From Escherichia coli (GTDB lineage: Bacteria > Pseudomonadota > Gammaproteobacteria > Enterobacterales > Enterobacteriaceae): a stretch of DNA of 64,000 bases. Position 1 is the first letter of the stretch. Each line of letters begins with the position of its first letter. Location: assembly GCF_024298765.1 (NCBI RefSeq), contig NZ_CP101210.1. One strand, written 5' to 3'. Below the pieces are notes generated by a model, which had not been told where the DNA came from, made no database searches, and worked only from the letters and a program-made list of their open reading frames with translations. This document shows, piece after piece, positions 53,285-53,663 of the stretch. Both the position numbers and the translations under genes were made by a program.

Positions 53285-53449
53285 ATTCATTTTTTAGCTC
53301 TGTAAATAACCACATTCTCGCCGGGATTGGGGAATGAGTGACGAGATCAGTGGTGTCTGGCGGCTATCACGCCACAGAATCAAATAACAGATAGCCTACG
53401 GTAAAATTTCGCTGACTGGAATTATCCCACCCTCGATCCATGTGATGGC

Positions 53450-53653
53450 TTGCCCTCATTTCTTCAGGCAGAAAAATCAAAAAATCGCTTTATGCTATCA
53501 GACTGCGACAAACCAGACGCGAAACTGGGTACTTACTATTCGTTAGTCTTGCCCTATCCGCTTATCTTTTTGGTGGTATGGCTGCTGATGTTGCTGGCGT
53601 GGTATCTTGTTGGTCTGCCGATAGGTCCGGGGATTTACCCACGTTTGTCTTAA
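53450..53653 (+). pseudogene. abgT: Probable 3' remnant of abgT (C-terminal membrane segment only)
   Basis: 67-codon ORF ending in a hydrophobic helix, stop 10 nt before ogt start, where abgT ends in K-12; identity to AbgT not verified. Confidence 0.35.
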
Positions 53654-53663
53654 GAGAGAACGG

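Follow-up and report, generated by a model that had tools for sequence, protein, structure and literature searches.

An abg operon deletion scar between mcaS and ogt of Escherichia coli retains the ogt promoter and may represent an old allele

The abg genes form a four-gene operon that salvages a breakdown product of folate. In the E. coli DNA analyzed here, a stretch of 64 kb that we call the window, the place of this operon between mcaS and ogt is taken by a short interval (53287-53663), and we judge with a probability of about 90% that this interval is the scar of a deletion of about 5 kb. In the mechanism that we propose, the deletion would have taken abgA, abgB, and the control region between the divergent abgR and abgA, together with the abgR codons up to ~230 and the abgT codons up to ~460, and it would have left two non-functional end-pieces: a heavily decayed abgR tail on the minus strand and the last 47 codons of abgT. 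The scar is ordinary and already known, because its junction occurs in more than 1,000 genomes and both remnants are annotated as pseudogenes in RefSeq. Its abgT piece carries the complete published NarL-dependent promoter of ogt, and the divergence of its abgR piece suggests that the allele is old.

The gene order in the window is dgcM, smrA, an MFS-HlyD-AraC island, mcaS, the scar, ogt, fnr, and uspE; the features at the scar are listed in Table 1. In K-12 MG1655, the abg genes (abgR-abgABT-ogt, b1339-b1335) adjoin mcaS, and smrA, mcaS, abgR (convergent with mcaS), ogt, fnr, and uspE have the same order and orientation. The two are collinear in the last 47 AbgT codons, the 10-nt spacer, and ogt, whereas about 5 kb of K-12 are absent from the window: abgR codons 1 to ~230, abgA, abgB, and abgT codons 1 to ~460. 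As a second abg-positive reference we used strain Nord122 (L002), which has the same left flank as the window. Compared to this strain, 5,040 bp are absent (L002 7408-12447), with the blastn breakpoints at L002 7407 and 12448. The junction was placed by these breakpoints and a three-way junction alignment. The McaS RNA matches the Rfam family RF00115 over model positions 1-96 of 96 with 112.8 bits (gathering score 42) and is not truncated. On the other side of the scar, Ogt matches Pfam PF01035 (3.6e-37) and PF02870 (7e-12) and shares 98.8% of its amino acids with Ogt of Nord122. As to how the deletion arose, the motif ACCAGAC is present near the breakpoints in both parents, yet the junction retains both copies, and a simple microhomology-mediated deletion is therefore unsupported.

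Table 1. Features at the mcaS-ogt scar (window coordinates)
Feature	Position	Strand	Sequence	Remarks
mcaS (IsrA) sRNA gene	53191-53286	+		intact including terminator; left border of the scar; Rfam RF00115
abgR 3' remnant (LysR-family regulator, ~codons 231-302)	53294-53505	-		decayed pseudogene; frameshift and internal stop
67-codon ORF	53450-53653	+		TTG start; 20 antisense-abgR codons plus 47 AbgT codons
Deletion junction	53505-53509		...CAGACTG/CG/ACAAACCAG...	abgR codon ~231 (antisense) joined to abgT codon ~460-462
abgT 3' remnant, codons 462-508 and stop codon	53510-53653	+		tblastn, Pfam, PGAP
NarL-dependent ogt promoter	53530-53615	+		inside the abgT remnant; mapped from PMC7419079
NarL I	53530-53545		TACTTACTATTCGTTA	centre -77.5
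NarL II	53563-53578		TATCTTTTTGGTGGTA	centre -44.5
Extended -10	53600-53608		TGgTATCTT
ogt transcription start (+1)	53615
ogt (O6-alkylguanine-DNA alkyltransferase)	53664-54179	+		intact

The initial annotation of this DNA had proposed that only the end of abgT was kept and that abgR, abgA, abgB, and most of abgT were lost. It suggested a tblastn search with the four Abg proteins as a check, and its reading was to be given up if the 67-codon ORF failed to align to the C-terminus of AbgT. We ran this search against the whole 64-kb window with AbgR, AbgA, AbgB, and AbgT of both K-12 and Nord122. The ORF does correspond to the AbgT C-terminus: residues 462-508 of K-12 AbgT align at 100% identity (53510-53650, E = 1.8e-23), and tblastn revealed no further AbgT-like segment in the window. 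AbgA and AbgB had no match at E <= 1e-3 anywhere in the 64 kb. Thus, the loss of abgA, abgB, and most of abgT holds, and none of our results speaks against a deletion scar. The loss of abgR, in contrast, is not complete: on the minus strand, AbgR residues 260-302 align at 74% identity (53297-53425) and residues 230-248 at 68% (53457-53513) in different frames, so that a tail of about 72 codons of abgR has survived next to the abgT end. An intact AbgR would combine an N-terminal HTH with a C-terminal LysR substrate-binding domain; here, only residues ~230-302 are represented and the N-terminus is absent. In strain 104, whose allele is identical, the RefSeq pipeline PGAP labels the remnant a LysR pseudogene that is frameshifted, has an internal stop, and misses its N-terminus. 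We also considered a paralogous LysR gene as the source of this remnant and rejected it: the remnant is collinear with mcaS, and it is closest to E. coli abgR (identity 0.76, as compared to 0.55-0.60 to outgroup abgR).

The abgT remnant is a gene fragment and no functional member of the AbgT family. A full-length AbgT has about 500 amino acids with multiple transmembrane segments, and 47 of the 508 residues are present here. These residues are identical to AbgT 462-508 of both K-12 and Nord122, and the remnant is 97.9% identical to intact abgT at the nucleotide level. ORF residues 21-64 match positions 457-500 of the 502 positions of the Pfam profile ABG_transport (PF03806; E = 8.7e-14, 51.1 bits with a cut-off of 27), and PGAP labels the piece as an incomplete AbgT family transporter pseudogene.

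The scar is widespread in E. coli. A 201-nt query spanning the junction was covered to at least 80% in 1,053 of 5,426 complete genomes. A query with the abgR remnant gave a bimodal result in the same 5,426 genomes: 1,172 of them matched at 80% identity or more (the remnant form) and 4,196 at ~76% (annotated intact abgR), with none between. The junction is thus present in roughly 1,050-1,170 complete genomes, about a fifth of the total. One identical junction was found in every E. coli deletion allele that we fetched (L001, L004-L007, and E69). These alleles diverge by up to ~8% and show nested secondary decay, with a 12-bp deletion in the abgT remnant of L005-L007 and E69 and a 19-bp deletion in the abgR remnant of L006 and L007. 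The carriers of the exact window-type allele are mostly poultry and APEC strains, for example O78:H4 isolates, which we take to belong to ST117 and phylogroup G; other carriers of the junction are CFT073, APEC O1, and E2348/69, presumably all phylogroup B2 strains, the phylogroups being deduced from strain names and the supplement of one paper. One scar allele with one junction is common to phylogroup B2 strains and to poultry-associated lineages like the one studied here. E. coli strain 104 is 100% identical to the window over 53100-53700, has the same junction, and carries the RefSeq/PGAP pseudogene pair DDV95_RS26330 (LysR fragment) and DDV95_RS17670 (AbgT fragment). In the literature on the distribution of abg by phylogroup, we found no paper that describes this polymorphism.

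These observations bear on the idea that the strain has recently and on its own deleted a K-12-like abg operon. The initial annotation had spoken of a deletion, and the operon is indeed absent, but the event does not belong to this strain: it is an old allele carried by ~20% of the complete E. coli genomes. A recent loss could account for the abgT remnant, which is still 98% identical to K-12 abgT in nucleotides and 100% in amino acids. It is, however, at odds with the identical junction in more than 1,000 complete genomes, with the divergence of up to ~8% and the nested indels among the deletion alleles, and with an abgR remnant that is 24% diverged from every intact E. coli abgR and has changes at all codon positions. 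We consider a recent strain-specific deletion to be practically untenable.

The abgT remnant is more than a leftover, since the promoter of ogt is located within it. In K-12, this promoter has a -10 hexamer TATCTT with an extended -10 motif and NarL 7-2-7 sites centred at -77.5 and -44.5, and a Fis site overlaps the upstream NarL site (PMC7419079). We mapped these elements on the window using the TATCTT hexamer with its p11C mutation, the mutated bases at -83/-72 and -50/-39, and the supplementary Figs S3-S5 of that study. The mapping is valid because the four bases mutated in that study (-83 C, -72 T, -50 T, and -39 G) all fall on the expected letters. NarL I, NarL II, the extended -10, and +1 are identical to the NarL/Fis-controlled promoter of K-12 (Squire et al. 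2009; Ruanto et al. 2020, PMC7419079): all elements match letter for letter, have the K-12 spacing, and lie wholly within the abgT remnant, so that the complete published promoter is retained. The junction is located ~107-110 bp upstream of the ogt transcription start. Upstream of about -107, K-12 has abgT coding DNA, whereas the window has the antisense abgR remnant. With the whole NarL-activated promoter inside the abgT piece, ogt should keep its normal nitrate-responsive transcription, as far as can be predicted from the DNA sequence. The retention of the promoter would also explain why deletions halt just upstream of it: deletions reaching further would remove the regulation of ogt, and this may be a simple reason for the right end of the scar. 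What is annotated as a fragment of abgT should thus be read as the regulatory region of ogt rather than as junk.

The same region is altered in some related alleles. CFT073, APEC O1, and E2348/69 have the same junction and, in addition, a deletion of ~10-12 bp between the two NarL sites that the window does not have; their junction string, TACTGCGACAAACCAGACG, is the same as that of the window and is printed in Fig. S4 of PMC7419079. The study reports the feature between the NarL sites for 'some pathogenic E. coli' and makes no link to the abg deletion (PMC7419079). The 12-bp deletion of L005-L007 and E69 (L019) is homologous to 53552-53563 and would bring NarL I about one helical turn nearer to the promoter. 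A consensus promoter and terminator scan picked up neither the ogt promoter nor the mcaS terminator and thus added no information.

The 67-codon ORF that crosses the junction is a chance chimera with an accidental frame. Its description in the initial annotation was accurate: the distance from the mcaS terminator, given as about 165 nt, is 163 nt (53286 to 53450), the frame ends 10 nt before ogt (ORF end at 53653, ogt ATG at 53664), and the C-terminal segment is hydrophobic, with 19-residue Kyte-Doolittle means of 2.3-2.4 across residues 33-55. Its assignment to abgT, though, applies to the last 47 of the 67 codons; the first 20 are antisense abgR remnant, which makes the frame a chance product. 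It might be argued that the fusion has given rise to a genuine gene, which would encode a small membrane protein with a single transmembrane pass. Every E. coli deletion allele has the TTG start and an open frame across the hydrophobic tail to the same stop, and this open frame is shared by three other Escherichia species. The conserved part overlaps the ogt core promoter and the 5' UTR, however, and this overlap explains its lack of indels. Moreover, the signs of a small-protein gene, i. e. translation signals and conservation at the protein level, are missing from the ORF: no Shine-Dalgarno sequence precedes either the TTG at 53450 or the in-frame ATG at 53492, the two candidate starts, and the 20 N-terminal codons vary among the alleles mostly in a non-synonymous manner (FM to LI, SD to KY, and S to P). 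In B2-type alleles, the 12-bp deletion removes four residues of the hydrophobic segment. In addition, the ogt transcription start falls inside the ORF, the strong mcaS terminator lies upstream of it, and PGAP annotates the AbgT-homologous piece only, as an incomplete pseudogene. We consider it highly improbable that the ORF is a gene.

Several lines of evidence suggest that the abg-less allele is far older than the diversification of E. coli itself. The divergence changes abruptly along the locus: it is ~1% in mcaS (compared to Nord122), 24% in the abgR remnant, 2% in the abgT remnant, 3-5% in ogt, and below 1% in the fnr region, and the diverged segment is bounded by the mcaS terminator on the left and by the junction on the right. 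The abgR remnant is 75.9% identical to the intact abgR of K-12 and of Nord122, with 52 mismatches and three gap columns in 216 nt; in the same segment, K-12 and Nord122 differ from each other by 1.8%. The mismatches at codon positions 1, 2, and 3 number 19, 11, and 24 of 73 each, and this spread is the pattern of long neutral decay rather than that of a recently truncated functional gene. We used two outgroup sequences, the abgR of Enterobacter sp. CC120223-11 and the remnant in Citrobacter amalonaticus S646, to polarise the differences; 19 were placed on the branch of the E. coli remnant and two on that of K-12, with 31 ambiguous; the relative-rate branch lengths, which like all our age estimates are based on these 216 nt, are ~0.17 for the remnant and ~0.074 for K-12 abgR. 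For comparison, third positions of ogt diverge by 8-13% within E. coli; the value rises to 23% for E69 and to 34-36% for E. albertii, E. whittamii, and Escherichia sp. E1V33. Among the 5,426 genomes, there is no intact E. coli abgR that is more than 95% identical to the remnant. Taken at face value, the depth of the split between the remnant and the intact abgR would be similar to that between Escherichia species. The 24% divergence as opposed to 1-5% in the flanks thus points to an allele that would predate the diversification of E. coli by far, rather than to a recent strain-specific loss.

An old allele with an abgT remnant that is only 2% diverged requires an explanation. The left ~55 nt of this remnant are diverged as well in the alleles of B2 strains and E69, where they share states with sister species, whereas the stretch is K-12-like in the window, which implies past recombination with abg-positive alleles. 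We infer that recombination has reached to within ~20 nt of the junction, or that the promoter is under strong constraint. The sharply bounded divergence of the abgR remnant marks, within a short sequence, a deep split between E. coli alleles, and it could be used to study the persistence of presence/absence polymorphisms and the recombinational erosion of their flanks. We also observed that ogt is unusually polymorphic in E. coli, with 95.2-97.1% nucleotide identity among the window, K-12, and Nord122 as compared to 99.2-99.7% in the adjacent fnr region; this polymorphism may be linked to the old abg presence/absence alleles.

Other species allow us to ask whether the operon was lost within E. 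coli at all. Species-representative genomes were scanned with a conserved 18-mer of mcaS. In E. albertii, E. whittamii, Escherichia sp. E1V33, strain SCPM-O-B-8794, and E69, the interval between mcaS and ogt holds abgR and abgT remnants only. E. albertii, E. whittamii, and C. amalonaticus S646 resemble the window in that the operon is missing and an abgT tail precedes ogt, but the remnants differ: E. albertii retains abgR codons 226-257 and 296-302, the cryptic-clade species retain abgR codons 286-302, both unlike the E. coli scar, and C. amalonaticus S646 has a larger and different pair with abgR codons 161-302 and abgT codons 479-508. E1V33 and E. whittamii also keep a weak piece of abgT codons 191-213 (E = 6e-4 and 3e-5, respectively). 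In several genomes of Citrobacter, Pseudescherichia, and other enterics, mcaS is close to ogt without any trace of abg, and in Enterobacter sp. CC120223-11, mcaS is followed by intact abgR-abgA. All right-hand endpoints cluster just upstream of the ogt promoter. A first multiple alignment had suggested one junction shared throughout the genus (E. whittamii, E1V33, and SCPM-O-B-8794); we discarded this because pairwise blastn shows that abgR codons 286-302 are kept there. A single genus-wide ancestral event is thus not established, as it is not clear that the sister species have the E. coli junction. Since the junctions, E69 aside, are not demonstrably the same as that of E. coli, repeated independent loss across species is likely.

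A rather different scenario is that the abg-less state is ancestral for E. coli, that K-12-like strains regained the intact abgRABT by recombination from a diverged lineage, and that the window lost nothing within the species. The five genomes with remnants only and the depth of the split between the remnant and the intact abgR, comparable to that between Escherichia species, fit this scenario, and horizontal gene transfer across this region has been documented in vivo (PMC12251178). On the other hand, the junctions of the other species differ from that of E. coli, and these species may have lost the operon independently. A donor for the re-acquisition is not known, since the closest AbgA from outside E. 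coli and Shigella does not exceed 80% identity. Moreover, K-12 and Nord122 differ by 1.2-2.1% across the operon genes, as ordinary vertically inherited genes do. A long-lived presence/absence polymorphism, or an introgression of the deletion allele into the phylogroups B2, G, and F, fits the same data, and we regard ancestral absence as rather unlikely. Three histories are compatible with the data: a polymorphism that has persisted for long, a deletion allele that was introgressed, or an operon that was re-acquired. Returning to the age of the deletion allele, the broader picture to which we give an even chance is as follows: The abg-less allele would be an ancient haplotype whose age is close to that of the splits between Escherichia species, the presence or absence of abg would be either a very long-lived polymorphism or the result of a re-import of the intact operon into an abg-less E. 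coli ancestor, the divergence would be confined to the non-functional 216-nt scar because recombination has homogenised the flanks, and repeated independent trimming in several species would stop just upstream of the ogt promoter.

Judging from the gene content, a strain with the scar allele should not import and cleave p-aminobenzoyl-glutamate, because both the Abg transporter and the hydrolase are gone. The predicted lack of p-aminobenzoyl-glutamate salvage through Abg extends to all strains with this allele, among them extraintestinal pathogens of B2 and lineages associated with poultry. The practical weight of the scar is small: it is a recognisable pair of pseudogenes that RefSeq already annotates.

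On the other side of mcaS, we made additional observations. An IS903B-like element (IS5 family, 1,056 bp) at 51511-52566 with a 9-bp target duplication, AAGCGGAAA, splits the gene for an AraC-family regulator next to mcaS (flanks 51239-51510 and 52567-53120), whereas this gene is uninterrupted in strain 104. Among the 5,426 complete E. coli genomes, there was no genome in which both insertion junctions were covered, so that the insertion appears to be confined to this strain or to a closely related lineage. The regulator gene is part of an efflux-like MFS-HlyD-AraC island of ~3.6 kb between smrA and mcaS (window ~48600-53120) that K-12 does not have. The final ~36 nt of the AraC-family gene can still be aligned in K-12 (L003 reverse-complement 3033-3250), which suggests that the island was deleted in the lineage of K-12. 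On either side, mcaS thus borders a segment that is present in some strains and absent from others, and Nord122 has both segments. The mcaS gene itself differs by 11-12% between the K-12 type and the type of the window and Nord122; in the Rfam alignment, the changes appear to be concentrated in the 5' stem-loop, and the 3' two-thirds are conserved even in Citrobacter and Pseudescherichia. Finally, the ORF for the DHA2-family MFS transporter (48603-50117, 504 amino acids) appears to be uninterrupted in the window, and the gene is annotated as frameshifted in strains 104, Nord122, THO-015, and others.
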